A DNA stretch of 64,000 bases, from NCBI RefSeq assembly GCF_036507355.1, contig NZ_AP027877.1; one strand, written 5' to 3'. Positions 7,303-58,549 of the stretch are shown piece after piece. The DNA is from Escherichia coli. GTDB lineage: Bacteria; Pseudomonadota; Gammaproteobacteria; Enterobacterales; Enterobacteriaceae. How positions within the stretch are numbered: the stretch's first letter is position 1; every line of letters starts with the position of its first letter. The notes under the pieces were generated by a model. It ran no database searches, had not been told where the DNA came from, and worked only from the letters and a program-made list of their open reading frames with translations. Both the position numbers and the translations under genes were made by a program.

Positions 7303-7312
7303 CTCTTTCCCC

Positions 7313-37366: not shown

Positions 37367-37519
37367 GTTATTAACCTCCTAAAGCCTGGCGATAACACGA
37401 TAATTTGCAAATCAGATATTTCCAATATCAGCATTTGTTATCAATTTATTCTGCGCTAAGGCAACTGCCTGATAAGGTGTTAAAGTTATAAAACCCTTCG
37501 CATAAAGGAGTTGTACACC

Positions 37520-38287
37520 GTGCCTGGTTTGAAGATTACGCTTTTGCAGCAACCACTGGTGTGGATGGATGGCCCTGCCAACCTGCGTCATTTTGATCGT
37601 CAACTGGAAGGTATTACCGGGCGCGATGTGATCGTTCTACCGGAGATGTTTACCAGCGGCTTTGCCATGGAAGCGGCTGCTTCGTCGCTAGCACAAGATG
37701 ACGTAGTGAACTGGATGACAGCCAAAGCGCAGCAGTGCAATGCGCTGATTGCAGGCAGTGTTGCATTACAAACGGAGTCTGGTTCGGTTAACCGCTTTTT
37801 GCTGGTTGAGCCGGGCGGCACGGTACATTTTTATGATAAGCGTCATCTGTTCCGCATGGCAGATGAGCATCTGCATTATAAAGCGGGCAATGCGCGAGTG
37901 ATTGTGGAATGGCGCGGCTGGCGTATTTTGCCGTTGGTGTGCTACGACTTACGTTTTCCGGTGTGGTCGCGCAATCTCAACGATTATGACCTCGCCATCT
38001 ACGTTGCCAACTGGCCTGCTCCGCGCTCTCTGCACTGGCAGGCATTGCTGACGGCCCGCGCGATTGAGAATCAGGCGTATGTGGCGGGATGCAATCGCGT
38101 CGGCAGCGATGGCAACGGCTGCCATTATCGCGGTGACAGCCGGGTGATTAATCCACAGGGCGAGATTATCGCTACTGCCGACGCGCATCAGGCAACGCGC
38201 ATTGATGCGGAGCTGTCGATGGCGGTGTTAAGGGGATATCGCGATAAGTTTCCGGCATGGCGGGATGCGGATGAGTTTAGGTTGTAG
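37520..38287 (+). CDS. yafV: nitrilase-superfamily omega-amidase YafV (GTG start)
   Basis: [31 protein letters not shown].. inside ORF 37511..38287. Confidence 0.9.
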
Positions 38288-38289
38288 TG

Positions 38290-38530
38290 AGTGGGTGTTG
38301 TGTTTAGGGCTGGGGAGAGTCGGGGAAGACTACGAAAGCCCGCTCTCCTGCGACCACTTTTATCATAGGAGTGTGGAAGTGCTTTTCCATCAATCGCGAT
38401 GACGTCTTTGTCATTTGATGAATGGCAGTCACGCATCCAGTTAATAAAGCATTCGTGAAATTATACTGAACGGATACAAGACATAACTCTAATTATGGTG
38501 CCGTGAACAGGATTACCATTTTCAAAATTA
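38290..38530 (-). pseudogene. H-repeat (ISAs1-family) transposase fragment, yafF-like
   Basis: Minus-strand reading ..[27 protein letters not shown].. matches the mid-region of H-rpt transposases (YhhI-like); ~85% identical to a second copy at 40301..40455. Confidence 0.5.
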
Positions 38531-38560
38531 CGATATTATTTGCAGTAATTATGTTATTAA

Positions 38561-39040
38561 TCATTGTGATATTTCCATCTCTGTGATTAATACCGGATAA
38601 GCATTTAATTGCAGAGTTTGCACGAAATTATCGCAGATAACTGGCAATAACAATAACCCATCAGCCCGCTGCTGTAATACCTCCATTCGTTCTACTGATT
38701 CAACATTAACAACCAAACCAAGGGCATTTAGCGATTTAAGGATCTCCAGATGTTCACTCATCCAGCGCAGAGAAAAAGGATCATCACCAATTATAAAAAC
38801 AGGCCCCCAGCCGGTTAATAACTGGCGTTTCATTACGGAGCCAGGATGAAGTCGAGTACATATTACAGGAAATACCCCCTGTTGCGATGGTTCCGATGAT
38901 GTGGATAATTCAGAAATATTTTGCATTGTTAGTGAAGAATTAACATCCATTAATAATGGTGAAACAACCTCACTTTCCTTGCTAGTAATGGCTGCACTAA
39001 TCTGAAAGGAAAATAACAATATTATTACGTATAAACTCAT
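38561..39040 (-). CDS. Small secreted or membrane protein of unknown function (159 aa from MSLYVIILLFSFQISAAITS)
   Basis: ORF 38561..39073; N-terminal hydrophobic signal-like segment; possibly the counterpart of K-12 ykfM by position (uncertain). Confidence 0.45.
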   Translation of the reverse strand: MSLYVIILLFSFQISAAITSKESEVVSPLLMDVNSSLTMQNISELSTSSEPSQQGVFPVICTRLHPGSVMKRQLLTGWGPVFIIGDDPFSLRWMSEHLEILKSLNALGLVVNVESVERMEVLQQRADGLLLLPVICDNFVQTLQLNAYPVLITEMEISQ

Positions 39041-39139
39041 TTTTAACATAACACATTCAATCCGTTTATTCATGTTATAGAATAATGATGCTATAAATCA
39101 TCATTAATGTTCAATTATTTAATCACACAATTTAAAAAA

Positions 39140-39571
39140 TCATTGACCAATGTGAATTGGCAATGTACCACTCAAGTTAAAATCACTGAATATTTTATCA
39201 ATTTCTCTTGCAGTTTCTATATATTTAACCTCTTTCGTACTTGCATTATAAATAGCCCAAGCCTCGGAATGGGATGTTTCACCAAACCTTACAAAAAAAC
39301 TTGATTTCATATTATTATATAAATTAACATCAGGAAAAGGATCTTCTCCAAAATTAGTAGTATTGAATAATGAAAGTTCGTATCGCTTAGAAAATTCTAT
39401 TGGTAGGATAGCTTCACTGCCATCAATAGCATTCATCCAGAGTTTGTTACCATTATATTCCAACAATAATCTCTGTTTTGCATGTGTCTTATCTCGTTCT
39501 TTAACGACAGCGAATACCTTTTTAACAACTTGCTGTGCGGATGGTCCTATTGTATTACCAAAAGCTGGCAA
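39140..39571 (-). CDS. Hypothetical protein, start uncertain (TTG start in track; out-of-frame ATG with strong SD just upstream)
   Basis: ORF 39140..39571; AT-rich; lies between two H-rpt fragments. Confidence 0.35.
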   Translation of the reverse strand: MPAFGNTIGPSAQQVVKKVFAVVKERDKTHAKQRLLLEYNGNKLWMNAIDGSEAILPIEFSKRYELSLFNTTNFGEDPFPDVNLYNNMKSSFFVRFGETSHSEAWAIYNASTKEVKYIETAREIDKIFSDFNLSGTLPIHIGQ

Positions 39572-39799
39572 CCCGATTTTGCCATAAACACTCTCCTAAA
39601 TGAAATAAATATCCGTTTTATCGGCCTCGACAATATCTACCATTTATCCCTCCAAACAAGACCTGACTCCAGGACAAGAGCATAGTGTGTAGTAAACACT
39701 TCATGCTCTTGCCCTGACCATTGAAATAACAACTTTCGTTTGTTTACTGTACGCTGTCTAAATAGCTGCGTGGAATAAAGTTGCACTTTTTATCATCCC

Positions 39800-40640
39800 T
39801 TGCAGAGCAAGATTACGAAAGCCCGCCCCCGCAAGGACTGACGCGAGGTAGTCTCTGTCCGCAGCTGCTTTTCACATCTTACATCTTGCCCCTGCCATGA
39901 GTATCTTATCTTTCGTTAAAATATTAATAGCGATCTTCCGTATCCCTGAAAATAATTCTGCTGCATTTCCTCTTCTTATTTTGAAGTCATCTTTATTCAT
40001 TACCACGTCCAGATGCCAGTGCAATTTATTCTCCACTTGCCAGTGATTTCGGTTCGCTGTGGCGAACTTCTCTGCGGTTAAATCAGCAGAAATGCTATAA
40101 TATCTGACCGTCATTTCGGGATTTTTCTTTTGTTCTGCTATTATTGAGCGAAATGAGACTGCCATGCATAATTTCTTCAGCCCTTTCCATTCAAACGTAA
40201 AATCAATAAATTCATCAGAGACATGCAAACAATATGAAGACGGATTTTAATGACATAAATTGCTCCCTTGTGACGACTCTTGTCATAAGAGTGCCGGAGC
40301 GTTTTTCCATCAATTGCGATGATGTCTTTATCATCTGAAGAATGACAGTCACGCATCCAGTTAATAAAGCACTCGTAAAATTTTGCAGGACTGATACAGG
40401 ATACAACTCTGGCAATGATATCGTGAACAGGAATACCATTTTCAAAATCACCATATCACTTCAAAAAATCGAGATGTGTTTCCCCAAATCCTCTATATCT
40501 TCCCAGCCTTATGCACCAGAAATAACGGCGCAAATAGTTAACAGATAGAATATCTGGCAATTTATGTTCCACTTTCCAGGCTTGCCTGTAATCGGGGATA
40601 ATAGAAATATGTTCCATCAATTTTTTAAGTTCCATTTTAC
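39800..40640 (-). pseudogene. H-repeat (ISAs1-family) transposase, disrupted by internal deletion and frameshifts
   Basis: N-terminus [26 protein letters not shown].. near 40640, mid part ..[11 protein letters not shown].., C-terminal part 39872..40228 (..[45 protein letters not shown]..). Confidence 0.7.
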
Positions 40641-40892
40641 CCCCCTTAATTATGCAATGAGTATTTGATCATGTATAAGCAATGAAAAACAGCTTTAGGT
40701 AATAAGGAACACCTCAATTATTGAACATAAAATGCGAATTATTTAGTACAAAAAAAGCAGTATTACGTGATTTTTCCCTGGGAGTACAGTGTGAAGTTTC
40801 CGGCATGGCGGGATGCGGATGGGTTTGAACTGGGGTGATTAGGCACTACATGTCTACATTTTCCCGGTCACCACCCCCTCAATCTTATGAAC

Positions 40893-42953
40893 TTAACCTC
40901 GGCTCACCGTTTTCGATTCCATCCAATAAATGACCCGGTTGGATGTGGGCTGATCGCCAACAACTTTGCCATCTGCAGAGATTAGCTTCAGCTCTTTATT
41001 AGCCTCATCACCGAAGTAAATCATACGGTAGCGAAAATAACCGCCCCAGGGTTCACGTCCACCCAGCGGACTTTGCATAAACCAGGCGCGGGAGTCGTGA
41101 ACCTGGTCATCATAGAGGGCCAGTAATTCAGCGCATGGCTGAGTACGCGTTCCCGTTCCCAGTGAATCAATAAAAAATTGTGGATAGAGTCCGTCTCCCA
41201 TAGCCTTAATTTGCTGATATTCTTTTGCTTCATCATCGCCATTAATCAGATACACCGGATATTTAGGAATGACATCCACAAGAATCTGAATGGCTTTCTC
41301 CATGACGCTGCCGTTAATATCGCGCGTCCATCCTTTATAATCGCTCTGAAATTCTCGGGCTGCCTCTCGCAACTGATACTGAGCATTGGTTGGGTCAAGG
41401 ATAGGAATGCCCTGATTACTTTCATCAAGTGTGCCATTCCCTTTCTGCTTGTTCGCCCGCTCTTTTTCAATATTTTCCATTTGTTCTTTACGCGCTTTAG
41501 CCTCTTTATCAAGTCCATCTTTATCCAGCTGTGGCGCCTTAATATAAAAAGGTTGCACAAGAAGGCTGTTATTCGCATAGCGACCGATACGCCAGGCGGT
41601 GATCCAGCCGATCTGATCGCTAATTGCGCTTTCAAGAACCTGGGCAAGTTGATAGGAGTGATAACCTTCCCTCGTATCAATCATTTCTTCTGTACCCTGC
41701 AAGGTGGTGTTCAGCAGCGTTTGTCGCCAGATGTTGAAGCGTTTTGTTAATGAATTAGCAATCGTAAATTCCTTTACACTAGAAGGACTCATAATTCGCA
41801 GAGGCGACACACCTTTTATTAATGGAGTAACAAATTTAGAATAAACAGCAAGTGGTGCTCCTGAATCAAATGCAGCAAGATACATATCATGCAGTGCTAT
41901 CTGAGAAAGAATTTCGCCTGAGTCACCACAGGACTTCCCCTGATCGCGAACGGGATAGCCACCACCGACATCAGAGTGCATCCCCGGATAGATAATTTCC
42001 TCTGCATTTAAAGGATAATTTCCGTCTGGACGACGGATTGAATCCAGCGGAAAGCACAGCCGCTGCTCATGCGCGGCAACGAAGTGGCGGCAGCATTTAA
42101 TCAGGCCGGGAAACTGCCTCTCATCAGGGAGTTGCTGAGTACTATCGGCCCATCCCATATGACCGGCAGCGCCCGGTAAAACATGCGCCGCCCCCACAGA
42201 AGCTACGGTATCCAGCAGCCCCAAAAACTCAATACTGACAGCTAACCCGGCCAGCATCACCTGTTGCTCCTGCGGGCAAGCTAACTGAGTCAACCAGTTA
42301 ACAAAAGTTCGTGCTTCCGCTGCGCCACGGGAAAATCCGTAGATAAACAGCTTTACGTTTAGCAGGCGCGGACTGGCTTGCTCTAACAGTCCCTGTAATT
42401 TTTCCAGGTAGGGGTTAATCACATTGCGACGATTCACTTCACCAGTCATAGGCCAGGGAGCGCGCATAAGAGGAATGTGCTCTTTTGCCACATTATCATC
42501 CAGTCGCTTATGGGAAGGGTCAATGGAATAGCTCAGGGCATCCACGAGGCGTAATAATGCCCAATTAATTCGATCTTCACCACCAGTAGCGAACTCCAGC
42601 CCGCTGTTGCTGTAATCCATTTCACCTATCTTGGGAAATGGTGTGCCTACACCCGGTATATAGTAGTTAAAATATCCCTGTTCTTCTGCGTTCTGATAGG
42701 TCGTATGAAACAGTTTGGCAATATTGGTTGGGTGTCCAGGAGTGTCATTATATTCATTATTATTTGTACCATCAAAAAACAGACTAATATGCAGACTTTG
42801 ATTACACGTAAAGCCAATTCTAAATCCAGCCTGTTTACTACAGTTGGTTTTGTGCTCTTCTGTTTTATTGATTTGTTTTAGGTAGTTCGCGTTTACCTGC
42901 GCTTCAGATAATATTAATCGCCCATCTTCAGGGAACACCGGGGGGCATAACAC
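40893..42953 (-). CDS. Tle1-family phospholipase effector, DUF2235 alpha/beta hydrolase (686 aa)
   Basis: DUF2235 hallmarks: N-terminal ..HISLFFDGTNNN.. and GxSxG nucleophile elbow IYGFSRGAAEARTF; sits downstream of a vgrG stub and a DUF4123-like gene. Confidence 0.75.
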   Translation of the reverse strand: MLCPPVFPEDGRLILSEAQVNANYLKQINKTEEHKTNCSKQAGFRIGFTCNQSLHISLFFDGTNNNEYNDTPGHPTNIAKLFHTTYQNAEEQGYFNYYIPGVGTPFPKIGEMDYSNSGLEFATGGEDRINWALLRLVDALSYSIDPSHKRLDDNVAKEHIPLMRAPWPMTGEVNRRNVINPYLEKLQGLLEQASPRLLNVKLFIYGFSRGAAEARTFVNWLTQLACPQEQQVMLAGLAVSIEFLGLLDTVASVGAAHVLPGAAGHMGWADSTQQLPDERQFPGLIKCCRHFVAAHEQRLCFPLDSIRRPDGNYPLNAEEIIYPGMHSDVGGGYPVRDQGKSCGDSGEILSQIALHDMYLAAFDSGAPLAVYSKFVTPLIKGVSPLRIMSPSSVKEFTIANSLTKRFNIWRQTLLNTTLQGTEEMIDTREGYHSYQLAQVLESAISDQIGWITAWRIGRYANNSLLVQPFYIKAPQLDKDGLDKEAKARKEQMENIEKERANKQKGNGTLDESNQGIPILDPTNAQYQLREAAREFQSDYKGWTRDINGSVMEKAIQILVDVIPKYPVYLINGDDEAKEYQQIKAMGDGLYPQFFIDSLGTGTRTQPCAELLALYDDQVHDSRAWFMQSPLGGREPWGGYFRYRMIYFGDEANKELKLISADGKVVGDQPTSNRVIYWMESKTVSRG

Positions 42954-43298
42954 GGAAAAGCCAGACCACTTATTTTGCTGGACATGTTGCTGGTTCTTTT
43001 ACTTTGAGAGATTTTAATTGATGGGTATTGTTTCTACGACAATAAAGTTTTGACAAAGAAGCAAATAAAATGCATATCTTTCGATTGTCACACATTGGAA
43101 TATCGACAGAGCATTGATGATATTACGCAAAATATATTGCAGCCAAGTGAACTGACATTACGATCGAACACAAATGCAACATGATGGATACTACCATTAC
43201 ATGTCGAGCTTGATTTTCCGTTTATTTCACGATTATCTCTTGATATTAACAGCTACGGACTTTTAAACAGATAAATCTCCCCGTACATCACCACAATA

Positions 43299-44069
43299 TT
43301 ATCCTTCGAAGTCCCGCAAAGCTCCGAAATATTTCGCGTCATTGGCTCTGAAAGCAATATCAAGACAGTGGGCAAAATAGCTTTCCTGACTGAGTTCACT
43401 GACTGCTTTCTCCTTCATCAGGACTTCAGCGTCGCAGATACAGCCCATCAATCCCACCTGTACATCATCCACCCGATTCATCTCCGGGTTGTCAGTAAGC
43501 CTGCGTTCTGGTGAAAAACTTCCTGATTTCCAGTTAATCTCACCATCACGGTCTAACCAGCTCCAGAACAACGCAATATCAGTAAATGTCGCCTGCTGCT
43601 CGTTAGTCAAAACATGTGTGAACAGTAAAGGGAACACCCGATTATCATAGTAACGCAGCAATCCGGTCTGTTCTTCCCACTGAACCTGTGACAATACCTG
43701 AAGATGCCGCCCCAGCAGGTCGAATGTAAGAGGGGATATCAACAAAGTAAGACGCGGCGTATCAGCAAATGACGCCATCAGTTGTGCCAGAAATTTGCGA
43801 TGGCTACTGAGCGCAAAGTACAGGCGTAACACTACAGGGGAATACTCCATCGTCTCAGCTTCAGGCGTTCCTTCAAACAGGGCATACCAGTGAATGGCTG
43901 GCGACAGATGAAGCATATCATTTTGCAAAGGTTGGTCGGTTCCAGCCTGGTCAACAAGCACATCTATGTAATCCAAACCAGCGGCAGAACAGAATGATTC
44001 AGCTTGCTTCAGCCAGATAATATATTTGTCTTGATCGGTAGCGTGTGGCGATACTGTTATCATTGTCAT
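43299..44069 (-). CDS. DUF4123-like T6SS effector adaptor/chaperone (256 aa)
   Basis: Size and position (between vgrG 3' end and effector) typical of DUF4123 adaptors; assignment from context and general sequence character. Confidence 0.5.
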   Translation of the reverse strand: MTMITVSPHATDQDKYIIWLKQAESFCSAAGLDYIDVLVDQAGTDQPLQNDMLHLSPAIHWYALFEGTPEAETMEYSPVVLRLYFALSSHRKFLAQLMASFADTPRLTLLISPLTFDLLGRHLQVLSQVQWEEQTGLLRYYDNRVFPLLFTHVLTNEQQATFTDIALFWSWLDRDGEINWKSGSFSPERRLTDNPEMNRVDDVQVGLMGCICDAEVLMKEKAVSELSQESYFAHCLDIAFRANDAKYFGALRDFEG

Positions 44070-44075
44070 TCTCCC

Positions 44076-44447
44076 TTATCCACGAGGCGCAAAAACGGCG
44101 GCGGCTTCTTGCGCCCTTTTCAGGCACTCCTTACACACCGATTTTTCTGGCGCTTCCTCACCCTCATCGTTGTTATCATTCTGATCGGACGATGCATTAC
44201 TATCATTTTGCTCAGCCGCTAAACTTTTATCATCTGCCAGCGCTTTCAGAACCGCCGGTTGCAGCGTCGGCACCGGCGTTCCCGGACTACCGCCGCTATT
44301 GAGATTGATTTTCGGCCCGACGATGTCCACGCTCCCTGAATGGATGACCACAAACGAGCCGCCCACCTTCAGGCTTATCCGGCTGCTGCTCTCCAGCACC
44401 ACATCGCCCTCCACCTTTAACCACGCCACCGCAGTCAATGGCATCAC
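44076..44447 (-). pseudogene. vgrG: vgrG 3'-terminal stub (123 aa)
   Basis: ..KVEGDVVLESSSRISLKVGGSFVVIHSGSVDIVGPKINLNSGGSPGTPVPTLQPAVL.. aligns to the C-terminus of the vgrG at 47531..49237; shared DNA segment 44366..44402 = 47916..47952. Confidence 0.75.
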
Positions 44448-44652
44448 CGGTTCTGGCGGTAGGTTTATCGTCGATAAAGGCGAAAGAGGTGTTTCCGGCT
44501 CTTAAGAAATATTTACGCACATGCACCAGCATTACAGAAAATAAAACCTGCGATACATTTTAATCAATAAGGTTGCTTTACCAAGCTTCCATCGATATTG
44601 ATGGAAAATTCATTAGACCTAATATGAACAGAATGTTGCTCATCATCTTTAT

Positions 44653-45339
44653 CTAATATTTGATTAACAAAAAAAACGTATTTTTATCAAATTCATAATT
44701 ATCACATCCCTCTCCACTAAATGATATAGCTCTAAAATCATATTCATTACATGAGTATCTTTTCATCAAAATAGAGAGGAATGTTTCATTAATTGATTTT
44801 AATACAAACCATTTTCTCCTAACAAGTTTGTAGTTTAATGTTTTTATATGATAATTATTTAAACTGGGGAGAAATGAATGCATATCATTCAATTTTACAT
44901 CAAAATATATTTTTTTACCTGCCGTAATTTCCACCCATCGGCTCAAATTCAAATCAAGCTCAAAGGGACAAAAGCCTCCTAGATAGTCTAAGCTAATATT
45001 TCCTGATGTAATCAAGAATTCGTCATCACACAAAGCATCAAATACATCTCCATTTCCTTTTTGGAAGTTCTTTGGATAATATATTCTGGGGAGAAAATAC
45101 GATTTAGTACTACTGTTATAAAAAGTTATAGTGGCTAAAATATTTTCAGCATGTGGCTTAACCACCAATTTAACAACAACATCATTTGTTAATTCATTAC
45201 TTATATTTTCCTCTGGCGCTAAATTATGGCTAAGATAAATAATTGGTTTCCCATTGTCACTTCTTCGTTCAAAACCGAATCTGTATTTTTTTACAAAAAG
45301 ATTCTCATTATCTATTGCAATTGCAATAGATAATGGCAA
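44653..45339 (-). CDS. AT-rich hypothetical protein, candidate immunity partner of the upstream HExxH protein; start uncertain
   Basis: ORF 44653..45339 begins at TTG; an ATG with signal-like peptide MKRLAFYNLNYVVLMVFFFVFC lies upstream in another frame across T-homopolymer runs. Confidence 0.35.
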   Translation of the reverse strand: MPLSIAIAIDNENLFVKKYRFGFERRSDNGKPIIYLSHNLAPEENISNELTNDVVVKLVVKPHAENILATITFYNSSTKSYFLPRIYYPKNFQKGNGDVFDALCDDEFLITSGNISLDYLGGFCPFELDLNLSRWVEITAGKKIYFDVKLNDMHSFLPSLNNYHIKTLNYKLVRRKWFVLKSINETFLSILMKRYSCNEYDFRAISFSGEGCDNYEFDKNTFFLLIKY

Positions 45340-45512
45340 AAAACAAAGAAAAAAACCATCAGTACAACATAATTTAGATTATAGAAAGCCAACCTCTTCA
45401 TCTTATTTCCCCGTCAACTCATCAAAACATTTTTCTATCTCTTTTATTTTATCCTCTACTTTTTTTGCTAACATATTCTCATCTTGAGCTTCAATATCTT
45501 CATTATTTAATT

Positions 45513-46205
45513 TTATATAAAATATCTTTCAACATTATATGCATTCTCAAATAACTGATCTTTACGCAATGTAACCAGATCATTAGCCACTGAAACATGT
45601 TTCTCATAGCTAACTTCATCCTTATTACTTGTTGCGAACTTATTAATACCCGTATAATCCTGAGTCCACATACCACCTTTTTGATTGTCACCCCAATACC
45701 AAAATATATGGGACATTTCATGGCAAAGTGTACTTACATGAGAGTCTCTACCTGTAACCGACTGTTTTATACCATGTCTGTATTCAAAATGCGCTCCGAT
45801 ATTTACAATGTAAGGAGGATCAAGATGTGGACTAATAAAAGCAGCAAATTCATTGCAGTTCGTATAATCTTTATAGCTTTCGATCGTCAAACCATTTGCA
45901 ATCGTCATTATTCGTCTGATGCCATCCATTATGAATAGTCTCGCTTGCATTCGTTTCCCAGTATCTTCCCCAACCTTTCTGATTTTTATAATGTCCTCGC
46001 CTTTAAGGCCAAAAACTTTAATAAAATCTCGTTGTTGCTCCCCCTCCCATGACATAATATCATCTGCTCTTTTCAATAAAACCATTTTCTGTGCTTTACA
46101 AGCCTTACTCATCATTATTTTAAATTTATTTGTAATTTTTTGCGGTACTACACATACTTGCGACTCGGGTTGTGAAGTCCCACTAGTATTATTATTCCCT
46201 GCCAT
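45513..46205 (-). CDS. HExxH zinc-metallopeptidase-like protein, candidate T6SS effector (230 aa)
   Basis: ATG at 46205 preceded by GGAGGGG; motif HEMSH followed by ..WTQDYTG.. (aspzincin-like spacing); N-terminal 16 codons of track ORF 45513..46334 come from the IS600-like terminus. Confidence 0.5.
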   Translation of the reverse strand: MAGNNNTSGTSQPESQVCVVPQKITNKFKIMMSKACKAQKMVLLKRADDIMSWEGEQQRDFIKVFGLKGEDIIKIRKVGEDTGKRMQARLFIMDGIRRIMTIANGLTIESYKDYTNCNEFAAFISPHLDPPYIVNIGAHFEYRHGIKQSVTGRDSHVSTLCHEMSHIFWYWGDNQKGGMWTQDYTGINKFATSNKDEVSYEKHVSVANDLVTLRKDQLFENAYNVERYFI

Positions 46206-46349
46206 AATGCCCCTCCGGCTCAATATAAAAAGCATCCGAAAATAACAATTGGACTTTAATTTCCTGTGCTGTATCTGTATAAAAGTGAGGTAGCCTGAGT
46301 TTAACGGACACTCCTTCCTGAAATAGAATGGCATCAGAAGGAGCTAATA

Positions 46350-46652
46350 ATGAGCAGAAAAACCCAACGTTACTCTAAAGAGTTCAAAGCCGAAGCTGTC
46401 AGAACGGTTCTTGAAAATCAACTTTCGATCAGTGAAGGCGCTTCCCGATTATCTCTTCCTGAAGGCACTTTAGGACAATGGGTTACCGCCGCCAGAAAAG
46501 GGCTCGGTACTCCTGGTTCCCGCACGGTGGCTGAACTGGAATCTGAAATTCTGCAACTGCGTAAGGCGTTAAATGAAGCTCGCCTTGAGCGAGATATATT
46601 AAAAAAAGCAACAGCGTATTTTGCACAGGAGTCGCTGAAAAATACGCGTTAA
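46350..46652 (+). CDS. IS3-family transposase OrfA (IS600-like)
   Basis: MSRKTQRYSKEFKAEAVRTVLENQLSISEGASRLSLPEGTLGQWV..; HTH plus leucine zipper. Confidence 0.85.
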   Translation: MSRKTQRYSKEFKAEAVRTVLENQLSISEGASRLSLPEGTLGQWVTAARKGLGTPGSRTVAELESEILQLRKALNEARLERDILKKATAYFAQESLKNTR

Positions 46653-46687
46653 TCGAACAATGGCGACAACAATTTCCCATTGAAGCG

Positions 46688-47506
46688 ATGTGTCAGGTAT
46701 TTGGTGTATCCAGGAGCGGTTATTACAACTGGGTACAGCATGAACCCTCAGACAGAAAACAAAGTGATGAGCGGCTAAAACTGGAGATTAAGGTGGCACA
46801 TATCCGCACTCGCGAAACATATGGAACCCGGCGGCTCCAGACGGAGCTGGCAGAGAATGGCATCATCGTTGGTCGTGACCGACTGGCACGTCTTCGTAAG
46901 GAGCTAAGGCTACGCTGTAAGCAGAAACGCAAGTTCAGAGCGACTACGAACTCGAACCACAATCTGCCAGTTGCGCCAAATCTGCTGAACCAGACGTTCG
47001 CTCCTACAGCACCAAATCAGGTCTGGGTGGCGGACCTGACGTATGTTGCCACACAGGAGGGATGGTTGTACCTCGCTGGCATCAAAGATGTTTATACGTG
47101 CGAAATTGTCGGCTACGCCATGGGAGAGCGCATGACAAAAGAGCTGACAGGTAAAGCCCTGTTTATGGCGCTCAGGAGCCAGCGCCCACCTGCCGGGCTA
47201 ATCCACCACTCTGATCGAGGTTCACAGTACTGCGCATACGATTACCGGGTCATACAGGAGCAGTTTGGTCTGAAAACATCAATGTCGCGTAAAGGTAACT
47301 GTTACGACAACGCTCCGATGGAAAGCTTCTGGGGAACGCTGAAAAATGAGAGCCTGAGCCACTATCGTTTTAATAACCGGGATGAAGCCATCTCAGTAAT
47401 ACGGGAATACATTGAGATTTTCTACAATCGTCAGCGTCGTCACTCTCGTCTGGGGAATATCTCCCCGGCAGCCTTCAGGGAAAAATATCATCAGATGGCT
47501 GCTTAA
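46688..47506 (+). CDS. IS3-family transposase OrfB, DDE integrase domain (IS600-like)
   Basis: ..WVADLTYVATQEGWLYLAGIKDVYTCEIVGYAM..HHSDRGSQYCAYDY.. Confidence 0.85.
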   Translation: MCQVFGVSRSGYYNWVQHEPSDRKQSDERLKLEIKVAHIRTRETYGTRRLQTELAENGIIVGRDRLARLRKELRLRCKQKRKFRATTNSNHNLPVAPNLLNQTFAPTAPNQVWVADLTYVATQEGWLYLAGIKDVYTCEIVGYAMGERMTKELTGKALFMALRSQRPPAGLIHHSDRGSQYCAYDYRVIQEQFGLKTSMSRKGNCYDNAPMESFWGTLKNESLSHYRFNNRDEAISVIREYIEIFYNRQRRHSRLGNISPAAFREKYHQMAA

Positions 47507-47530
47507 AAAAAGAATAAATGGTAGTGTCCG

Positions 47531-49237
47531 CTATTGCCAGTACACCTCAAATATTTCTGTATATCCCTCTCTGTCTGTTTCACCACGCGTCTGTGTGCCA
47601 TCCTCAAAAAAGGCAATATACTGCGTCTCTGAATACGGTATCCCGTCATCGTCCGTAAAATGGAACTGGAGGGTATATTTTTCAGGATCATCTTCATCGT
47701 CACCGCCATCACCTCCTCCGTCACTCCCTGCGGGATTGCCACTATCCTCTCCGGAGTCATCACTGCCATCATCACTGCTCTCATCCTCCGGAGCCTCCAG
47801 CACCGCCGGCTGCATCGTCCCCACCGGTGTCCCCGCACTGCCCCCACCGTTCAGGTTTATCTTCGGCCCGGCAATATCCACTCCGCCCGGCTGAATGACG
47901 ATAAACGAGCCACCCACCTTCAGGCTTATCCGGCTGCTGCTCTCCAGCACGATATCCCCGTCCACTTTTATCCCCAGCGCGCCACTCACCTTCTCCGCCA
48001 GGTCCCCCTTCACCACCAGGCTGTGTTTCCCCTCCACCAGACTGATATGGTTCCCCGTCGTCTTATGCTCCTGCTTCCCTTCCACCGTCACTTTACGGTC
48101 GTTTCTGACGTACAGACCGTCATCGTGACTCACGCTCACCGTCCGGTCATTCGTCACCTTCAGAGTCTGGTCATTACGTACCGTGATACGCCGGTCGTTC
48201 GCCACCGTGATACTCTGGTCGTGGCCCCCCTCTTTTTTTGTACCGACCTGAACCGTCTGACCCTTCACCACCGTTATCTTCTGGTCGTTACCGATGGTTT
48301 CCGTATGGTCATGTTTTACATCCGTTGTCCGGTCGTTGAGCACCTCCGTATCCATGTTCTTCTGCGCATGGATATACACCTGCTCATTACTGGTGGCGTC
48401 TTCAAACCGCAGCTCGTTAAATCCGCTTCCTTTATAGGTTTTTGACCGTATCGTCATCTGCGTCTTCGTTCCCGGCAGGTCGCCCGGGGAGCGGTTGTCC
48501 TCATGGTACGTCCGCCCCATGATTATCGGCTGGTCCGGGTCTCCGTTCAGAAAATCAACAATCACCTCCTGGCCCACCCGCGGTATCGCCAGATTACCGA
48601 ACCCCGGCCCCGCCCACGCCTGCGATACCCGCACCCAGCATGAACTCGCCTCCGTCATCCCGTGATAACGGTCCCAGTGGAACTTCACCCGTACCCGGCC
48701 ATGTTCATCGCAGAAGATTTCCTCTCCCGCAGGCCCGGTGACAATGGCACTCTGCGGCCCGTCCACCTTCGGTTTGCTTTGCAGCCGTGGACGCCACGTC
48801 CGGTCCGCCGGTATCACCTCTAACTGATTTCCCAGCGTGGTTCCTCTCCCTTGGCTGCCGTGCAGCGCCTGCGGCTGGCTTCCTGACAGTATGCTCTGTA
48901 CCACCTGCCATTCACGGTTCAGCATCTTCTGCGGATGCCCCGTCAGCGTAAACCGCGTTCCCGGCCACAGCCTCGGCGAATTACTCTGCCCTGTGGCCTT
49001 TTCCGCATCACTGCGCAGGCTCTCCATCTGGTACAGCGTGAAATCCTTGCCGTGCTGCTCATCCTTGAACCTTCCCGGATAATCAAATATTTCATACTGC
49101 GCCAGCTGTCCGTTCAGGTTCTCACCCTGCTGCTCATACATCCCCGGCCAGTCCGGCACCTTAAACGTGTAATCCTGGCTCTGCACCGACGACGGGCGGA
49201 CATGCGCCTCATACGCTACCGCCCGGGTTTCCGGCAT
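47531..49237 (-). pseudogene. vgrG: vgrG lacking ~270 N-terminal residues; 3' end runs into the IS600-like element
   Basis: Starts within the gp27-like region (..VRPSSVQSQDYTFKVPDWPG..), contains gp5 OB-fold segment (..VDGPQSAIVTGPAGEEIFCDEHGRVRVKFHWDR..) and Asp/Glu/Gly-rich C-terminal extension; last 6 codons are IS sequence. Confidence 0.8.
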
Positions 49238-49290
49238 CCGCCATCTCCCTCATGAAAGCGTAACTCCTTACTGACACTCATTTTTTACAC

Positions 49291-49330
49291 GTACAAAAAC
49301 AACATCCTGCACGAAGGCAGGATGTTGTTG
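49291..49330 (-). terminator. Intrinsic terminator downstream of hcp
   Basis: Minus-strand caacatcctgc-cttcgtg-caggatgttg followed by TTTTTGT. Confidence 0.6.
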
Positions 49331-49338
49331 ACTCAGAT

Positions 49339-49857
49339 TTATGCTTCCAGCGGTGCACGCCAGTCATCGGCACCAGAAGTACCGGATTTGATGTGCTCCC
49401 ACTCAACCTTACGGTATGCCAGTGATACTGCGAGCAATTGCGTAAACTCACGCTGTGCAGGGTCCTGGCAGTGCGGCATGTGCAGGTTCATGTCCACAAT
49501 CGTCGCGTCAGTAAGACGTGTGGTGAAGTAGTGCTCCTGCTTGCCTTCAACTGAAGTACGCCACCAGTGCAGCTCCACTTTCGGCAGCATTTCACCGGAG
49601 GCCAGCGCGTTGTACAGCAGCGGAACGGCTTTGTTCAGCGCCACGGTGAAAATGAACGGTTTGTGCGCGCGCTGCCCGGAAGGTTGACCAGACTGTGGAT
49701 CGGTTGGAACAGTAACGTTATGCAGAAACTCCTGCACCAGCATTTCATCTTCGTGTCCCTGCACGTAGATATTGCCGACAGAATCTGCGGTGAAAGCACC
49801 GGCAGTGATGTTCCCCTGGGTCTGACCTGTAATTGAAATGTAACATGGGGTTGGCAT
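49339..49857 (-). CDS. hcp: T6SS tube protein Hcp (172 aa)
   Basis: MPTPCYISITGQTQGNITAGAFTADSVGNIYVQGHEDEMLV..HKPFIFTVALNKAVPLLYNAL.. Confidence 0.9.
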   Translation of the reverse strand: MPTPCYISITGQTQGNITAGAFTADSVGNIYVQGHEDEMLVQEFLHNVTVPTDPQSGQPSGQRAHKPFIFTVALNKAVPLLYNALASGEMLPKVELHWWRTSVEGKQEHYFTTRLTDATIVDMNLHMPHCQDPAQREFTQLLAVSLAYRKVEWEHIKSGTSGADDWRAPLEA

Positions 49858-50559
49858 TTATGAACTCCTTGTGAAATTATCAACTGCTGTTTTACGAACA
49901 ACCCGTCGTTAATCCCCGACGGGTTAGAGTGTGATGCGGCTCACATCAGGAACCACACCCTTTTCTTTATTCGAGTTACAGGCACACGTAATTAGCACCT
50001 ACTGAAAAACTCTTTTATGGTGTTTAAATATATTTTTAGTCAATTTCAGAACACGGTCACATAAGCTAAAAATATATCAACTTCAACAGCAGAATTATCC
50101 ATAACGTATCTTCCCCCCCATAAAAATCCACAGCCGCGTCAAAAACAAATTATTACGACACTTACTCCGCCATCGTTCCAGCACGCAATTAAGATATTCC
50201 TTAAAGGAATTCCTTATGATGTATTGCCAGCAATTAATTAATTGATAAAACCATACATAAAACTTATTAATCAATTTAATAAATGCATATAAATCAATAT
50301 ATTATTGTATTTGATTGACCGTAAAATCATATTCATCAAGTCTATAAATACCAAAATCTATTTCACTATAATATATTAGCAAGGAAGAATGCATCTCTTT
50401 CTAAAATATAAATAGTTCTTTTAATATTTTATTTCATGAGTAGAATACTGATCACAACAGAAGGAAGGTTACATTATCTAACTGCCACTGAAACGGTATC
50501 TTCGGTATTTTTATGCAGTACGAAAATGCTGTGCTCATGGTCTGAACGGGAACATTTTT

Positions 50560-50715
50560 ATGAGCAAAATGAACAACAATGGCGGCAGTGTCGCGCCGAA
50601 AGAAAGAATCAGCGTTCGGTATACACCAAAAGTTGATGGGGTGGCTGCTGATATCGAATTGCCGCTGAATTTATTGATCACCGGCAATCTGAAAGGGAAA
50701 CCAGATAACACGCCG
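50560..50715 (+). pseudogene. tssB: tssB (sheath small subunit) 5' stub, ~52 codons, cut by IS3-family element
   Basis: MSKMNNNGGSVAPKERISVRYTPKVDGVAADIELPLNLLITGNLKGKPDNTP then IS terminus; TssB N-terminal pattern; too short for the ORF track. Confidence 0.55.
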
Positions 50716-50772
50716 TGAATCGCCACGGGTTTAACAGACACCTCAGAGTCATTTAAGATGGCTTAAAGAGAG

Positions 50773-51057
50773 GTGCCCATGAGCGGTAAGCGTTATCCCG
50801 AAGAGTTTAAAATTGAAGCAGTCAAACAGGTTGTTGATCGCGGTTATTCTGTTGCCAGCGTTGCAACACGTCTCGATATCACCACCCACAGCCTTTACGC
50901 CTGGATAAAGAAGTACGGTCCGGATTCTTCCGCTAATAAAGAACAGTCAGATGCTCAGGCCGAGATCCGCCGTCTCCAGAAAGAGCTGAAGCGGGTTACC
51001 GACGAACGGGACATATTAAAAAAAGCCGCGGCGTACTTCGCAAAGCTGTCCGACTGA
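50773..51057 (+). CDS. IS3-family transposase OrfA
   Basis: MPMSGKRYPEEFKIEAVKQVVDRGYSVASVATRLDITTHSLYAWIKKY.. Confidence 0.85.
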   Translation: MPMSGKRYPEEFKIEAVKQVVDRGYSVASVATRLDITTHSLYAWIKKYGPDSSANKEQSDAQAEIRRLQKELKRVTDERDILKKAAAYFAKLSD

Positions 51058-51113
51058 GGTACGCCTTTATCCGTGACAACACCTGTTGCTGGCCTGTTCG
51101 CCTGCTCTGTCGG

Positions 51114-51926
51114 GTGCTGGATGTTCATCCCAGTGGTTTTTACGCCTGGCTTCAGCAGCCGCATTCACAACGCCATCAGGCAGACCTGAGGCTGACAGGG
51201 CAGATTAAACAGTTCTGGCTGGAATCGGGATGCGTCTATGGTTATCGCAAAATCCATCTGGATCTGCGGGACAGCGGGCAACAGTGCGGAGTGAACAGAG
51301 TCTGGCGACTGATGAAACGTGTCGGGATAAAGGCTCAGGTCGGATACCGGAGCCCGCGGGCACGTAAAGGCGAGGCCAGTATCGTGTCGCCCAACAGGCT
51401 CCAGCGACAGTTCAATCCGGATGCTCCGGATAAGCGTTGGGTAACGGACATAACCTACATCAGGACCCACGAAGGCTGGCTGTATCTTGCCGTGGTTGTT
51501 GATCTGTTCTCACGCAAAATTATCGGCTGGTCCATGCAATCCCGGATGACAAAGGACATTGTCCTGAACGCACTGCTGATGGCTGTATGGCGCCGTAATC
51601 CCCAAAAACAGGTGCTGGTTCATTCGGATCAGGGCAGTCAGTACACAAGCCATGAGTGGCAGTCGTTCCTGAAATCACACGGCCTGGATGGCAGCATGAG
51701 CCGTCGCGGTAACTGCCATGATAATGCGGTTGCAGAAAGCTTTTTCCAGTTGTTGAAACGCGAACGGATAAAGAAAAAGATCTACGGAACGCGGGAAGAA
51801 GCCCGCAGCGATATTTTTGATTACATCGAAATGTTTTATAACAGTAAGCGTCGGCATGGTTCCAGCGATCAGATGTCACCGACAGAATATGAAAACCAGT
51901 ATTATCAACGGCTCGGAAGTGTCTAG
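51114..51926 (+). CDS. IS3-family transposase OrfB (DDE integrase domain)
   Basis: ..WVTDITYIRTHEGWLYLAVVVDLFSRKIIGWSM..VHSDQGSQYTSHEW.. Confidence 0.85.
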   Translation: MLDVHPSGFYAWLQQPHSQRHQADLRLTGQIKQFWLESGCVYGYRKIHLDLRDSGQQCGVNRVWRLMKRVGIKAQVGYRSPRARKGEASIVSPNRLQRQFNPDAPDKRWVTDITYIRTHEGWLYLAVVVDLFSRKIIGWSMQSRMTKDIVLNALLMAVWRRNPQKQVLVHSDQGSQYTSHEWQSFLKSHGLDGSMSRRGNCHDNAVAESFFQLLKRERIKKKIYGTREEARSDIFDYIEMFYNSKRRHGSSDQMSPTEYENQYYQRLGSV

Positions 51927-52198
51927 ATTATCCGTGGCGATTCAGTTGTCAAGCAGATAGAAGCCATCTAGGTCAGGGGGAATGACTAGGAATTACTCCC
52001 CAAGGGTAGCGTACGTCTACACACATCAAATTACCTCCCGGACAGGGACATAGTAGAAATATTGTGTATTGCAATTATGGATACTGTCATCGTCTAGGTA
52101 GTTCGCCAGCTTTATAGTGTTTTACTGAATTTGGCCACCTGAGCAGAGGTGATATGGGAGAGTGATTTTCATACGCTCTCGTATGGTTTCCGGCCTGA

Positions 52199-52426
52199 AT
52201 GCAGTGTTCATCACGCGATCCGCACGGTGAAATTACAGCTCACAGACTGTGGGGAAACCCGGGGCGCTGGGTGATTGAAGACGACCTGTCCAGTTACTTC
52301 GACACCGTACACCATCGACTGCTGATGAAAGCCGTACGCCGCAGGATCAGTGACGCACGTTTTATGGCCCTCCTGTGGAAAACCATCAAGGCGGGCACAT
52401 CGAGGTCGGTCTCTTTCGGGCGGTAA
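52199..52426 (+). pseudogene. Reverse transcriptase fragment (ykfC-like)
   Basis: ..VIEDDLSSYFDTVHHRLLMKAVRRRISDARFMALLWKTIKAG.. resembles RT finger/palm motifs; no continuation. Confidence 0.45.
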
Positions 52427-52429
52427 GTG

Positions 52430-52684
52430 ACGCCGCGCCAGCTGACGTTGCCACGAATATTCGCCAATACGCTGCCAGACTTCGGTATGAAAGCGCAGAA
52501 TCAATGACCGGTAATCGGCCATGCTTTCGCGGTACGGCAGCGTCAACGTAAAGCAGAACACCACGAGTCGTGGGTAATGGTCAACGGCCTGTTGCAGAAA
52601 GGCTCGTGTATTTGTCGTGTCAGTCGAATTGCCGGAGACGATGGAGGGAGAATAAGGATTCATAACGGCGCTCTCAATGAACAC
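52430..52684 (-). pseudogene. Inovirus Gp2-family protein, N-terminal fragment
   Basis: ..AFLQQAVDHYPRLVVFCFTLTLPYRE.. resembles the N-terminus of Gp2-family proteins of CP4-type islands; remainder of the track ORF is antisense to the RT fragment. Confidence 0.4.
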
Positions 52685-52888
52685 TGGTGTGATGGACAGG
52701 AGTGTGATGTTGCAGGTGTGCTGCTCATCATCGATCCCATATCATTACGTTCGCTCACTAAGACGGAGTGCCTTTCGTCATTTAACCTGTCACAATCCAA
52801 ATAATTTCAGACAGATATTATCTCCGTGAATCCCCCGCCTCCTTAACCGGAGCGCGGGGATTTTTCTTTTTCACGTTGAGAACTCTGT

Positions 52889-53771
52889 ATGACTAAACCT
52901 CACGGCCTTCAGGCCCTTGAACAACCGCTGGCGTCGCTTCCCGATGCGCTTCGCCAGCTTATTCTTGAACGTATTCAGAATCTCACCCACTATGAGCCGG
53001 TGATTGGTATCATGGGCAAAAGCGGTGCCGGTAAGTCTTCGCTCTGTAACGAACTCTTCCGGGGTGAGGTCTCCCCCGTCAGTGATGTGAACGCCTGTAC
53101 CCGTGAAGTGCTGCGCTTCCGGCTGCGCAGCGGGCGTCACAGTCTGGTGATTGTTGATTTACCGGGTGTGGGAGAAAACGGGCAACGGGACCATGAATAC
53201 CGTGCCCTGTACCGGCGTATGCTGCCGGAACTGGACCTGGTTCTGTGGGTCATTAAGTCCGATGACCGGGCGCTGTCGGTGGACGAGCAGTTCTGGCGCG
53301 GTGTGATGCAGCCTTACCAGCAGCAGGTGGTGTTCGTGATTAACCAGGCCGACAAAATAGAACCCAGCCATGAATGGGATACCCGTTCTGGTACTCCCTC
53401 AGCACAGCAACAGAAAAATCTTCAGGAAAAGCAGGTTGCCATTACCACGATGTTTAAGCCACATCACCCGGTCTGCGTGGTATCCGCATGTACCGGATGG
53501 GGCGTGGAGGATATGGTAGCAACCATGATGCGCTGTCTGCCGGACCGCGCCACCAGCCCAGTAGCGACACAGTTGCACGGGAGGCTCTGCACGGAGCCGG
53601 TAAAGTCGCAGGCCCGTGACGGCTTCGGTGAGGCGGTGGGGCGGTGGGGCGGGTGTTCGATACGGCAGAATCATCGTTATTCCTGCCTGCGCCGCTGAAG
53701 ACGGTGATACGTACCGTGCGTGATGCTGTGGTGTCTGTAGCCCGCGCGGTCTGGGACTGGATCTTCTTCTG
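52889..53771 (+). pseudogene. YeeP/YfjP-family GTPase with 3' frameshift from an 8-bp tandem duplication
   Basis: P-loop GKSGAGKSSLCN; cggtgggg repeated in tandem at 53634..53649; removing one copy restores ..GEAVGRVFDTAESSLFLPAPLKTVIRTVRDAVVSVARAVWDWIFF. Confidence 0.65.
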
Positions 53772-54032
53772 AATGAGTAAAAGGTCATCAGGACTGTAGT
53801 GAATGACTCTGTTTATTCACCGCCTGGTAGATGATTATTTCCAGGCAGACATAACCTGTCCTGACCAGCAAAAGATACCACCAGTCATAAGCGCGTCACC
53901 ACTGCCGACGTTGCATCCACACAGTCTTCTTGCACCAGGCGTTTCGCTACGTATGACGGACACAACCTGTCAGTCCCATCCTTTACAGTAATACCTTCTT
54001 TATTAATCAATTACCCAACACGGAGATAATAC

Positions 54033-54736
54033 ATGTCTCAGGCTGAGCGTCGTTATGACCGCCTGTCTGTCCGGCTTTCTCTAATTATCAGCCGTCTGCT
54101 CGCGGGTGAAACGCTGAATATGCGCAAACTGGCCGCTGAGTTTGGCATCTCGGAGCGTACCCTACATCGTGATTTCCGCGAGCGTCTGATTTATCTCGAC
54201 CTCGAATATCAGGATGGCTGCTGCCGTCTGCTGACCGGAGGCCGTCAGGAGATTCGGGAGGAGGCCGCAATGCAGTTTGCCCGTCAGTCAGGCACTGGCG
54301 CGTTGTTTCCTGATATGGACCACCATCTGGTCAATTCATTGCTGAGCAGCAAGGACTCCTCGCCATGTCTTATCTGGCATCCGTAACGTCTTCCCGCCCA
54401 GGCATCTTCACACGACTGGTCAGGGCGGTATCAGAAAACAGGAAGGTAACCCTGCTGGCTGACGGATGCCGTTGCGACAACCTTGCCCCCTACCGACTGA
54501 TTTTCAGCACCGGTGGGTGGTTTCTGGTGGGGGAACACCTTGCCCGGATAACCGTTTTTGCACTGCACACAGTTCACTCCGTGACGTTTCACGCGGAAAC
54601 CTTCACACCAGACGGACATTTCACCCGCATTCTGTCACACCCGGATTTTTTACAGGCGTTACCTCATTTTCATGTTTTTCATTCACTACTCGCTGACGGC
54701 AGTTACGGGCAGCTTACCCATAAGGAACAGGCATGA
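54033..54736 (+). pseudogene. YfjR-like HTH/WYL transcriptional regulator split into two overlapping ORFs by a frameshift
   Basis: ORF 54033..54386 carries the HTH (..[20 protein letters not shown]..); ORF 54365..54736 carries a WYL-like segment (..APYRLIFSTGGWFLVG..); combined length ~233 codons. Confidence 0.55.
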
Positions 54737-55368
54737 AATTACTCACCTCGGCGGCGCTGGCCGCCAGCCTCTGCATTACCTCTGTGACCCCGGCCATCGC
54801 AGAAAATATCGTGGGTTCAGTTAAGGCCTGGCAGTACATGCAGGCTGATGGCTGGAAATCCGCTGATGGATACGATGATAACCGCATGCATAACGAGTTA
54901 TACCAGGCGGTCGTTCTTGATAATTATCCCTGGACGAATCACTTTCTGCTTCGTAGCAGAGGCGGTAGTTCGCTTTATCTGGCAGACAAGAAAGCTAAAA
55001 CTGTCAAATACATCGATATAAAACCTCGCGACGAGTATCCGTTACATCTTCAGGTTGTTTATCGGGGAATTGATGACGGGAGTGGCTGTTATTTCGCCAT
55101 TGTAGATGACCGAATGGCAAACTACTGGACGATTGTTGAAGATCGTCTTCTCTATCAGGACCCACCTGTTGAAGACGTCGATGCGAAAGCAGCTGAGCTT
55201 AGAAAACAACTCACGCCGGAAGTCGTGATGATGGTGAAGGATAATTGTATTGACAAACAGCAGCAGGCTGCACTGGCAGCTAAGCGTTCTGAAAAAGATC
55301 GAGAGTTGCAACAGTGGGTGGCGAAACAGAGCCTGGCGGAATTATGTCGTCGTACCGGCAACTGCTGA
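54733..55368 (+). CDS. Secreted protein of unknown function (211 aa)
   Basis: Signal peptide MKLLTSAALAASLCITSVTPAIA. Confidence 0.5.
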   Translation: MKLLTSAALAASLCITSVTPAIAENIVGSVKAWQYMQADGWKSADGYDDNRMHNELYQAVVLDNYPWTNHFLLRSRGGSSLYLADKKAKTVKYIDIKPRDEYPLHLQVVYRGIDDGSGCYFAIVDDRMANYWTIVEDRLLYQDPPVEDVDAKAAELRKQLTPEVVMMVKDNCIDKQQQAALAAKRSEKDRELQQWVAKQSLAELCRRTGNC

Positions 55369-55403
55369 CCCGCTGAAAACAACCATAACAGGGAGTTTTT
55401 AAC

Positions 55404-56305: not shown

Positions 56306-56367
56306 ACTCCCCGCCTCAGGGAGAAGCTTCCCGTATTCATTTAACACATTAAAAATAAAGGAAAAGA

Positions 56368-56910: not shown

Positions 56911-56969
56911 CCGGCATCAGCGCTGTCCGGCCCGGATGAGCAGGCAAGTTAAATCAAGGAACAATATCA

Positions 56970-57800: not shown

Positions 57801-58067
57801 TGCCACCACTGCCTGATAACGCCCACCCGGCCGCCATTAATCCTGCCCCCTGGAGAACAACCCCGGCAGCCGCCCCATCTCCGATGACGACCTGTGCGCC
57901 TGTGCTCACACCTTCTTTATCGTCCCGGTGAACTCAGTTTCTGCCGGTTAAGTCTCGCTGACGGCCACTGGCCCTCACACTGTGATGAAGACGGCTATGC
58001 GCAGTCCTGTCCGTCACTCCGATTGAACCGGTATCCCCAACACAATGAATGAAAGAGGAAAAACAAC

Positions 58068-58538: not shown

Positions 58539-58549
58539 GGTCAGCCGCT

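Follow-up and report, generated by a model that had tools for sequence, protein, structure and literature searches.

A 64 000-nucleotide stretch of the Escherichia coli contig NZ_AP027877.1 (RefSeq assembly GCF_036507355.1), referred to here as the window, carries the last codons of yafV twice: once inside the intact gene and once beside tle1, which encodes a Tle1-like phospholipase effector of a type VI secretion system (T6SS). From sequence comparison we conclude that the second copy appears to be the core of a 58-nucleotide relic that derives from the 3′ end of another, divergent allele of yafV, which would once have lain tail-to-tail with tle1. The relic begins exactly at the terminus of an insertion sequence (IS) of the ISAs1 family (H-repeat or H-rpt elements) and keeps the yafV reading frame and stop codon. 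It has no start codon and is therefore non-coding; it is without function and shows no sign of one. Rearrangement scars of this kind are already known in E. coli; this one is a further example, mediated by an IS, and involves no new mechanism or function. The relic explains why the E. coli T6SS-1 island seems to carry a duplication at its yafV end, and it matters little beyond that bookkeeping.

The repeat and the yafV relic

The window contains exactly two occurrences of the 28-mer AAGTTTCCGGCATGGCGGGATGCGGATG, at 38246–38273 and 40794–40821, both on the plus strand. None of 100 dinucleotide-preserving shuffles contained a match to it, even with up to three mismatches allowed, and none is expected by chance. 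The exact 28-bp direct repeat of the yafV 3′ end reported in a preliminary description of this DNA, made from the sequence alone, is thus real, and a repeat search of the window extends the pair to 50 nucleotides at 82% identity. Copy 1 lies within the yafV coding sequence and corresponds to its last codons (K-F-P-A-W-R-D-A-D). The end of copy 2 and the tle1 stop codon are 71 bp apart, which makes the earlier placement of this copy 'immediately next to' the 3′ end of tle1 roughly right. The 28/28 identity of the two copies is peculiar to the lineage of the window; in strains A30, NC101 and EC28, copy 1 has CAG for CGG and the match falls to 27/28.

The same arrangement recurs among the 5426 complete E. 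coli genomes compared. At least 80% of positions 37500–41900 is covered in 69 of them and at least 80% of the junction piece 40640–40990 in 66, while about 72 records hold the second place of the repeat, so that the junction of IS, relic and tle1 is present in about 66–72 of the 5426. Since 66–69 independent complete genomes share the arrangement, it is not an assembly artefact, and the assembly collapse that the preliminary description had named as a possible source of the repeat is excluded.

The relic consists of 13 diverged nucleotides (GGAGTACAGTGTG), the 28-mer and 17 further nucleotides (GGGTTTGAACTGGGGTGA) leading to a TGA stop codon at 40836–40838. Both flanks are yafV-like: the homology passes the 28-mer on either side and remains in frame to the stop, ending in the tail DADGFELG*, compared with DADEFRL* in the resident protein. 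The translation in this frame is given as (R)... and as EY(S/R).... Over its 58 nucleotides the relic is collinear with the whole yafV end of strain ChlosBP-23-1, in which the yafV–tle1 junction is complete. The 13-mer of the relic has the pattern GAGTACAG[A/T]GTG. Outside the 28-mer, the two copies in the window agree at only 5 of 13 upstream and 10 of 17 downstream positions (hand counts). The second copy appears to mark a former yafV/tle1 junction, as had been proposed, but it is not a duplicate of the resident yafV end, because the flanks of the 28-mer are those of a different allele.

Relatives of this allele were sought with a degenerate-pattern scan for yafV ends in species-representative genomes, which returned at least 120 stretches, including those of E. 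albertii, a cryptic 'E. coli' species and many other enterobacteria; YafV C-termini proved variable across the enterobacteria. The yafV end of the one Pseudocitrobacter faecalis genome matches the relic at 51 of 55 nucleotides in its window type and 52 of 55 in its NC101 type, and the C-terminus of the P. faecalis YafV protein is identical to the relic-encoded tail. The usual E. coli yafV tail reaches about 45/55 (hand count), E. albertii 39–40/55 and the representative of the cryptic species 38–39/55. For the 13-mer, the match to P. faecalis is 11/13 (hand count), with an estimated chance probability of about 1e-5, and two of its differences from E. coli yafV are synonymous third-position changes. 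Among the matches listed from other genera, including the P. faecalis genome, none has tle1 beside yafV.

Within Escherichia, E. albertii NBRC 107761 (positions 7090–14349 of the locus compared) encodes on the opposite strand, some 5.5 kb downstream of yafV, a VgrG homologue (56% identical over 347 amino acids), the only such case among the matches listed; on this evidence the presence of a T6SS cluster at the yafV end seems conserved across the genus. The YafV tail of E. albertii, DADGFRLL*, is intermediate between the two E. coli tails.

The insertion-sequence terminus at the edge of the relic

IS termini were defined from a full-length ISEc1 (at the ydcC locus) and four other copies. The right-hand element is 978 bp long and retains both imperfect terminal repeats, CAG(A/G)G(C/A)AAGAT(T/C)ACG, with 312 internal bp missing: positions 39803–40247 correspond to ISEc1 positions 1–447 at 90% identity and 40248–40780 to positions 760–1291 at 92.5%. 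RefSeq labels it as a frameshifted ISAs1 transposase. Its left terminus, ...TTTTTCCCTG (also written ...CGTGATYTTTCCCTG), has CCCTG as its last bases and ends at 40780; the relic starts at the following nucleotide. A junction placed exactly at an IS terminus implies a join made by the transposase.

The junction, CCCTG followed directly by GGAGTACAG, is common to strains 23CRST027, A30, NC101 and EC28 and to a human-gut metagenome contig, with one single-nucleotide polymorphism (SNP) in the 13-mer. The tle1 flanks of the strains that share it differ by up to 66 positions in 2150 bp (up to 3%). That the same junction is found despite such divergent flanks makes it look like the product of a single, fairly old event. 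A scan of metagenomes for the relic-type tail returned the single contig, which is of the NC101 type, and no further intact junctions.

The left-hand fragment is composed of the right terminal repeat of the element (38321–38345) fused to an internal piece of the transposase (38341–38537; 82% identical to ISEc1), and is annotated as a partial ISAs1 transposase pseudogene in three homologous loci. The repeat search pairs 38342–38541 with 40262–40461 (200 nucleotides, 80%). The two H-rpt fragments described earlier at 38381–38530 and 40301–40455 do exist, but their identity, given as about 85%, was measured as 124/150 or 83%. A mosaic breakpoint inside the IS, as proof of recombination between IS copies, was also sought; there is too little difference to place a crossover.

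The terminal 19 nucleotides of the IS differ between copies of the window type and those of the APEC/NC101 type. In genomes of the NC101 type (positions ∼6960–7020 of the NC101 locus compared and 441–470 in the metagenome contig), the IS and the relic are separated by a further 18 bp that repeat part of the ISEc1 terminus (…GATGATCTTTCCCTG ATTACTTGACCTTTCCCTG), suggesting that ISAs1 elements acted at that end more than once. Nested termini of the family also occur at the ybfQ locus, and the 23CRST027 locus (7022–7718) has an extra IS1A inside the left ISAs1 fragment as well as an IS903B beside tssB, neither of which is found in the window. The locus is a hotspot of IS activity.

The module between the copies in other genomes

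The two small open reading frames (ORFs) noted between the copies in the preliminary description are present, both on the minus strand (38561–39073 and 39140–39571, or 39140–39643 for the uninterrupted gene). The first, counted as 170 amino acids from its first start codon and annotated as 162 amino acids in its homologues, belongs to the PFL_4695 family of integrating conjugative element (ICE) proteins (TIGR03765; E = 2e-35, 120.7 bits against a cut-off of 59.75). The second, a hypothetical gene of 167 codons, has no match in Pfam or NCBIfam; in the window a nonsense change, Q16* (TAG at 39596–39598), leaves an ORF of 143 amino acids at 39140–39571. The gene is intact in 23CRST027, A30 and NC101 and always accompanies the PFL_4695-family ORF. 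Apart from these two ORFs the segment holds only IS pseudogenes, and no integrase or excisionase was found between the copies among the ORFs, the NCBIfam/Pfam matches or the RefSeq annotation of five homologous loci.

The same module occurs where there is no relic. In APEC E19019, yafV is followed by the IS fragment, the ICE-protein ORF, the hypothetical ORF and a deleted ISEc1, with a single 28-mer; beyond the IS lie a hypothetical gene and a PAAR/DUF2169/VgrG cassette. K-12 (DH5alpha) likewise has a single 28-mer, and there yafV is followed by the yafF IS fragment and then by yafU/ykfM/yafT/aspV. In strain 7CC the site is occupied by a full-length ISAs1 element, which lies beside an Rhs element. 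Because the module also adjoins yafV where the relic is missing, the repeat does not bracket it as a unit and is neither a target-site duplication nor an att pair. The preliminary reading of the repeat as the footprint of an inserted or duplicated 2.5-kb segment is contradicted by the arrangement in APEC E19019. Judged by these comparisons, the module with an intact, species-typical yafV is widespread, and the relic travels with the tle1 cassette.

The 'empty-site' lineage ChlosBP-23-1

In ChlosBP-23-1, yafV is fused directly to tle1, so that the left flank, one 28-mer and the right flank follow one another. It is the sole genome with this form among the 5426 complete genomes. A gene for the identical YafV protein recurs on at least 24 other contigs (from NCBI drafts, ENA and Logan), in every case beside tle1. 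These contigs differ by 0–4 SNPs in 4.7 kb and share a private G>A inside the 28-mer, and on both grounds they represent one clone.

The two flanks of the fusion have different affinities. To the right of the repeat, ChlosBP-23-1 differs in 2150 bp from EC28 at no position, from NC101 at one, from the window at 34 and from A30 at 66, and its Tle1 protein has the same accession as that of EC28. To the left, it differs from EC28 at 33 of 2900 positions (1.1%), and its yafV 13-mer is of the E. coli type (GGAATATAGAGAA), with 4/13 differences from that of the relic. A precise one-copy form, such as an unoccupied attB would give, exists in one clonal lineage, and its flank differences from EC28 of 0 and 33 fit homologous recombination better than an ancestral or excised att site. 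Because the clone is nested in the diversity of relic-bearing strains on one side and unrelated to it on the other, it represents a secondary loss and not an ancestral state. The most fitting account of ChlosBP-23-1 is a recombination in which a live yafV would have paired with the relic of an EC28-like chromosome, with loss of the 2566-bp module and formation of a chimeric yafV bearing the relic tail. An exchange of this kind in E. coli that depends on RecA has a reported minimal efficient length of about 23–27 bp. The 28 bp available here are close to that minimum, which would fit the rarity of the event.

As an ancestral empty site, ChlosBP-23-1 at first looked decisive; this candidate was ruled out by the 13-mer mismatch, the clonality of the contigs and the asymmetric divergence of the flanks. 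Genomes in which yafV adjoins the T6SS island, which the preliminary description proposed for comparison, form one derived clonal lineage, whose tle1 flank is that of a relic-bearing strain.

Proposed origin and alternative explanations

We consider it likely that copy 2 is the relic of a divergent yafV that was cut by an ISAs1-family IS and then rearranged into the present order. We infer the following course. At the far end of the T6SS-1 island, which occupies the interval between tRNA-Asp/yafT and yafV, the divergent allele would have lain tail-to-tail with tle1. The terminus of an ISEc1 (H-rpt) element would then have been joined 17 codons before the stop of this allele, either by simple insertion or by an IS-mediated adjacent deletion. 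A homologous exchange may have followed, most simply one in which this IS recombined with its counterpart in the widespread module (yafV, IS fragment, two ORFs, IS), or else one further out in the flanks. Its product would be the order observed now: an intact yafV with the typical tail, the IS-bounded module, and an orphaned relic beside tle1. The one visible consequence of the relic is that the 27–28 bp common to it and the live yafV could later have served as the crossover site used by one E. coli lineage, with loss of the module and a chimeric yafV as the result.

The existence of an 'empty-site' form that has exactly one flank, one 28-mer and the other flank, in at least 24 assemblies, would also agree with a fusion of yafV and tle1 of the ChlosBP kind being ancestral, the 2.5-kb H-rpt-bounded segment having been inserted as a unit with duplication of about 28 bp. 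We think this improbable. A duplication would leave identity between the copies, but the sequence outside the 28-mer differs (5/13 and 10/17 positions identical), and the 13-mer of the relic is 4/13 off that of ChlosBP yafV although the adjacent 2150 bp are those of EC28. All of the empty-site contigs, moreover, belong to one clone nested in the relic-bearing diversity, and the module is also found without copy 2. Direct repeats of a gene 3′ end around foreign DNA are the classic signature of an integrase island, one enclosed ORF belongs to an ICE-associated family (TIGR03765) and a precise 'excised' form exists, all of which would suit a decayed integrative/conjugative element in the yafV 3′ end with the 28-mers as attL and attR, a replacement gene end and the PFL_4695 protein as cargo. 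Such an element is very improbable, as the segment has no integrase or excisionase among its ORFs and annotations, adjoins yafV in single-copy genomes (APEC E19019 and, with the IS fragment, K-12) and is bounded at copy 2 not by an element end but by an IS terminus together with 13 nucleotides of extra yafV homology. The 'excised' form itself has a breakpoint between lineages (33 differences against 0) and is not a clean excision in one background. An att pair was accordingly rejected on the absent integrase, the module without copy 2 and the coincidence of the relic edge with the IS terminus.

The IS elements between the copies could also bring to mind a transposon target-site duplication, and a short repeat may in general be a chance match or an assembly artefact; we give these together a negligible chance. 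Known target-site duplications of the ISAs1 family are about 10 bp or less. A repeat of 28 bp is far too long, and no copy abuts an IS end, copy 1 lying 47 bp from the left IS fragment and copy 2 lying 13 bp from the right IS; a target-site duplication was discarded on these distances and on length. Chance and artefact are opposed by the 0/100 result in shuffled sequences and by the 66–72 independent complete genomes together with the metagenome contig.

Several observations weigh against the origin from an IS-cut divergent yafV proposed above. Only 55–58 nucleotides, and comparison with one P. faecalis genome that has no tle1 beside yafV, stand behind the assignment of the relic to a foreign or ancient allele, and neither E. 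fergusonii nor E. marmotae is among the matches listed in the yafV-end scan. Recombination could in principle have spread the junction among lineages, which would weaken the parsimony argument for polarity. No target-site duplication is left at the IS at 39803–40780, whose flanks (…CATCCCTTG on one side and GGAGTACAG… on the other) are unrelated, and the predicted intermediate, in which an intact IS would divide yafV and leave the 5′ part of the gene on its other side, turned up in no genome. With neither a surviving target-site duplication nor the intermediate, a simple insertion and an IS-mediated adjacent deletion cannot be told apart.

A further-reaching possibility, prompted by the close match of the relic to the P. 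faecalis yafV end but in our view unlikely, is that the tle1 end of the T6SS-1 island, or the whole island, came from a Pseudocitrobacter-like enterobacterium by recombination anchored in yafV, bringing with it a donor 3′ end (DADGFELG*) that the IS would later have cut. The relic would then still act as a 28-bp 'landing pad' through which effector modules move between strains, as in ChlosBP-23-1.

Relation to known systems

The yafF pseudogene of K-12, an H-repeat, is a close counterpart in the sense that the same IS family occupies the same site, with its right terminus 33 bp past the yafV stop. K-12 differs in having lost the T6SS island and in having a single 28-mer, whereas in the window another yafV end, beside tle1, has also been cut off by a second ISEc1-like copy. 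Copies in states of decay, nesting or truncation are typical of the H-rpt/ISEc1 family, elements of which are found at Rhs and T6SS loci. Remnants of gene 3′ ends at IS termini likewise consist of a short, in-frame, non-coding piece that is inherited in a subset of strains; what departs from ordinary IS-made remnants is that an intact gene persists 2.5 kb away, so that the locus looks duplicated, and that the fragment comes from a different allele. With attL/attR islands the locus shares a repeat of a gene 3′ end around accessory DNA and a precise loss product in nature. It differs from them in having no integrase, a repeat that does not delimit the segment elsewhere, edges formed by an IS terminus and by allelic divergence, and a loss product that contains a recombination breakpoint between strains.

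T6SS1-like operons carry variable vgrG-tle-tli-paar fragments (review PMC6730261). The exchange of vgrG–effector–immunity cassettes in E. coli T6SS-1 is visible at the yafV-proximal end, where tle1/tli1/tla1 in the window and NC101 and PAAR/DUF2169 in APEC E19019 stand behind the same IS module. What the present locus adds is that the tle1 cassette drags along 58 nucleotides of a foreign-looking yafV end, which mark its former place. Literature on yafV and type VI secretion, on aspV/T6SS/Tle1 and on ISAs1/H-repeat/Rhs yielded no description of this junction.

In about 1% of complete E. coli genomes, the junction of IS, relic and tle1 offers a small marker by which the past of the tle1 cassette can be traced. 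The locus also holds a caution for comparative genomics, in that an 'empty-site' lineage can mimic proof of insertion and yet be derived by a crossover within 28 bp of identity. More generally, it exemplifies the reshaping of a secretion-system island at its variable end through ISAs1/H-rpt elements and very short homologies.

Locus anatomy and state of the T6SS-1 island

The features around the repeat are listed in Table 1. On the yafV side the T6SS-1 island ends with tle1; of the neighbours of this gene, the Tla1 ORF matches NF053803, while Tli1a is named by RefSeq annotation only. In 23CRST027, the closest complete relative, the island runs on through the T6SS core to yafT and tRNA-Asp, which places the repeat at the yafV-proximal end of the T6SS-1 island.

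Table 1. Features around the yafV repeat, from left to right. The order is based on the RefSeq annotation of the near-identical loci of 23CRST027 and A30 and on our own comparisons.
Feature	Position	Strand	Basis
fadE, ivy	upstream of yafV		
yafV, resident, intact; 2-oxoglutaramate amidase, 255 amino acids	37520–38287	+	RefSeq annotation of the near-identical 23CRST027 locus; translation
28-mer, copy 1	38246–38273	+	inside the yafV coding sequence
Degenerate H-rpt (ISAs1-family) fragment, where K-12 has yafF	38321–38541	−	BLAST against full-length ISEc1; terminus comparison
PFL_4695-family 'integrating conjugative element protein' ORF	38561–39073	−	NCBIfam TIGR03765; RefSeq annotation
Hypothetical gene, 167 amino acids, nonsense-interrupted in the window	39140–39643	−	
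ISEc1-like ISAs1-family (H-rpt) element, transposase pseudogene	39803–40780	−	alignment to ISEc1; termini
yafV 3′-end relic, 58 nucleotides	40781–40838	+	collinear with the yafV end of ChlosBP-23-1
54-bp spacer between relic and tle1	40839–40892		
tle1-like T6SS phospholipase effector gene, convergent with the relic	40893–42953	−	RefSeq; Pfam PF09994/PF22137 on the orthologue
tli1a, tla1, VgrG pieces, Hcp	beyond tle1		

The T6SS-1 island of the window (43000–61900) is decayed and only its distal part is left. The remains comprise tle1, tli1a and tla1, a fragment of VgrG, an M35 peptidase, a VgrG interrupted by an IS3-family element (46688–47506) and Hcp (49339–49857), followed by the upstream region and the first ∼150 bp of tssB, up to 50716. 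Both yafT and the core genes tssB to tssM, present in 23CRST027, are missing, and with the core gone the tle1 cassette is probably an orphan at this locus. In their place stand another IS3-family copy (51114–51926) and an island of about 10 kb, with GTPase, DUF932 and DUF4942 genes, that reaches to tRNA-Asp/dnaQ (from ∼61863) and that we read as CP4-like.

The resident yafV has the species-typical tail ...DADEFRL*. Its stop codon is a TAG at 38285–38287, where most strains, K-12, APEC and NC101 among them, have TGG (W256) followed by TGA, so that the gene in the window is one codon shorter. Compared with most E. coli (…MMALREYREK…), its last ∼15 codons are a divergent allele, and the MAVL part of their motif is also present in the species representative of the cryptic clade.

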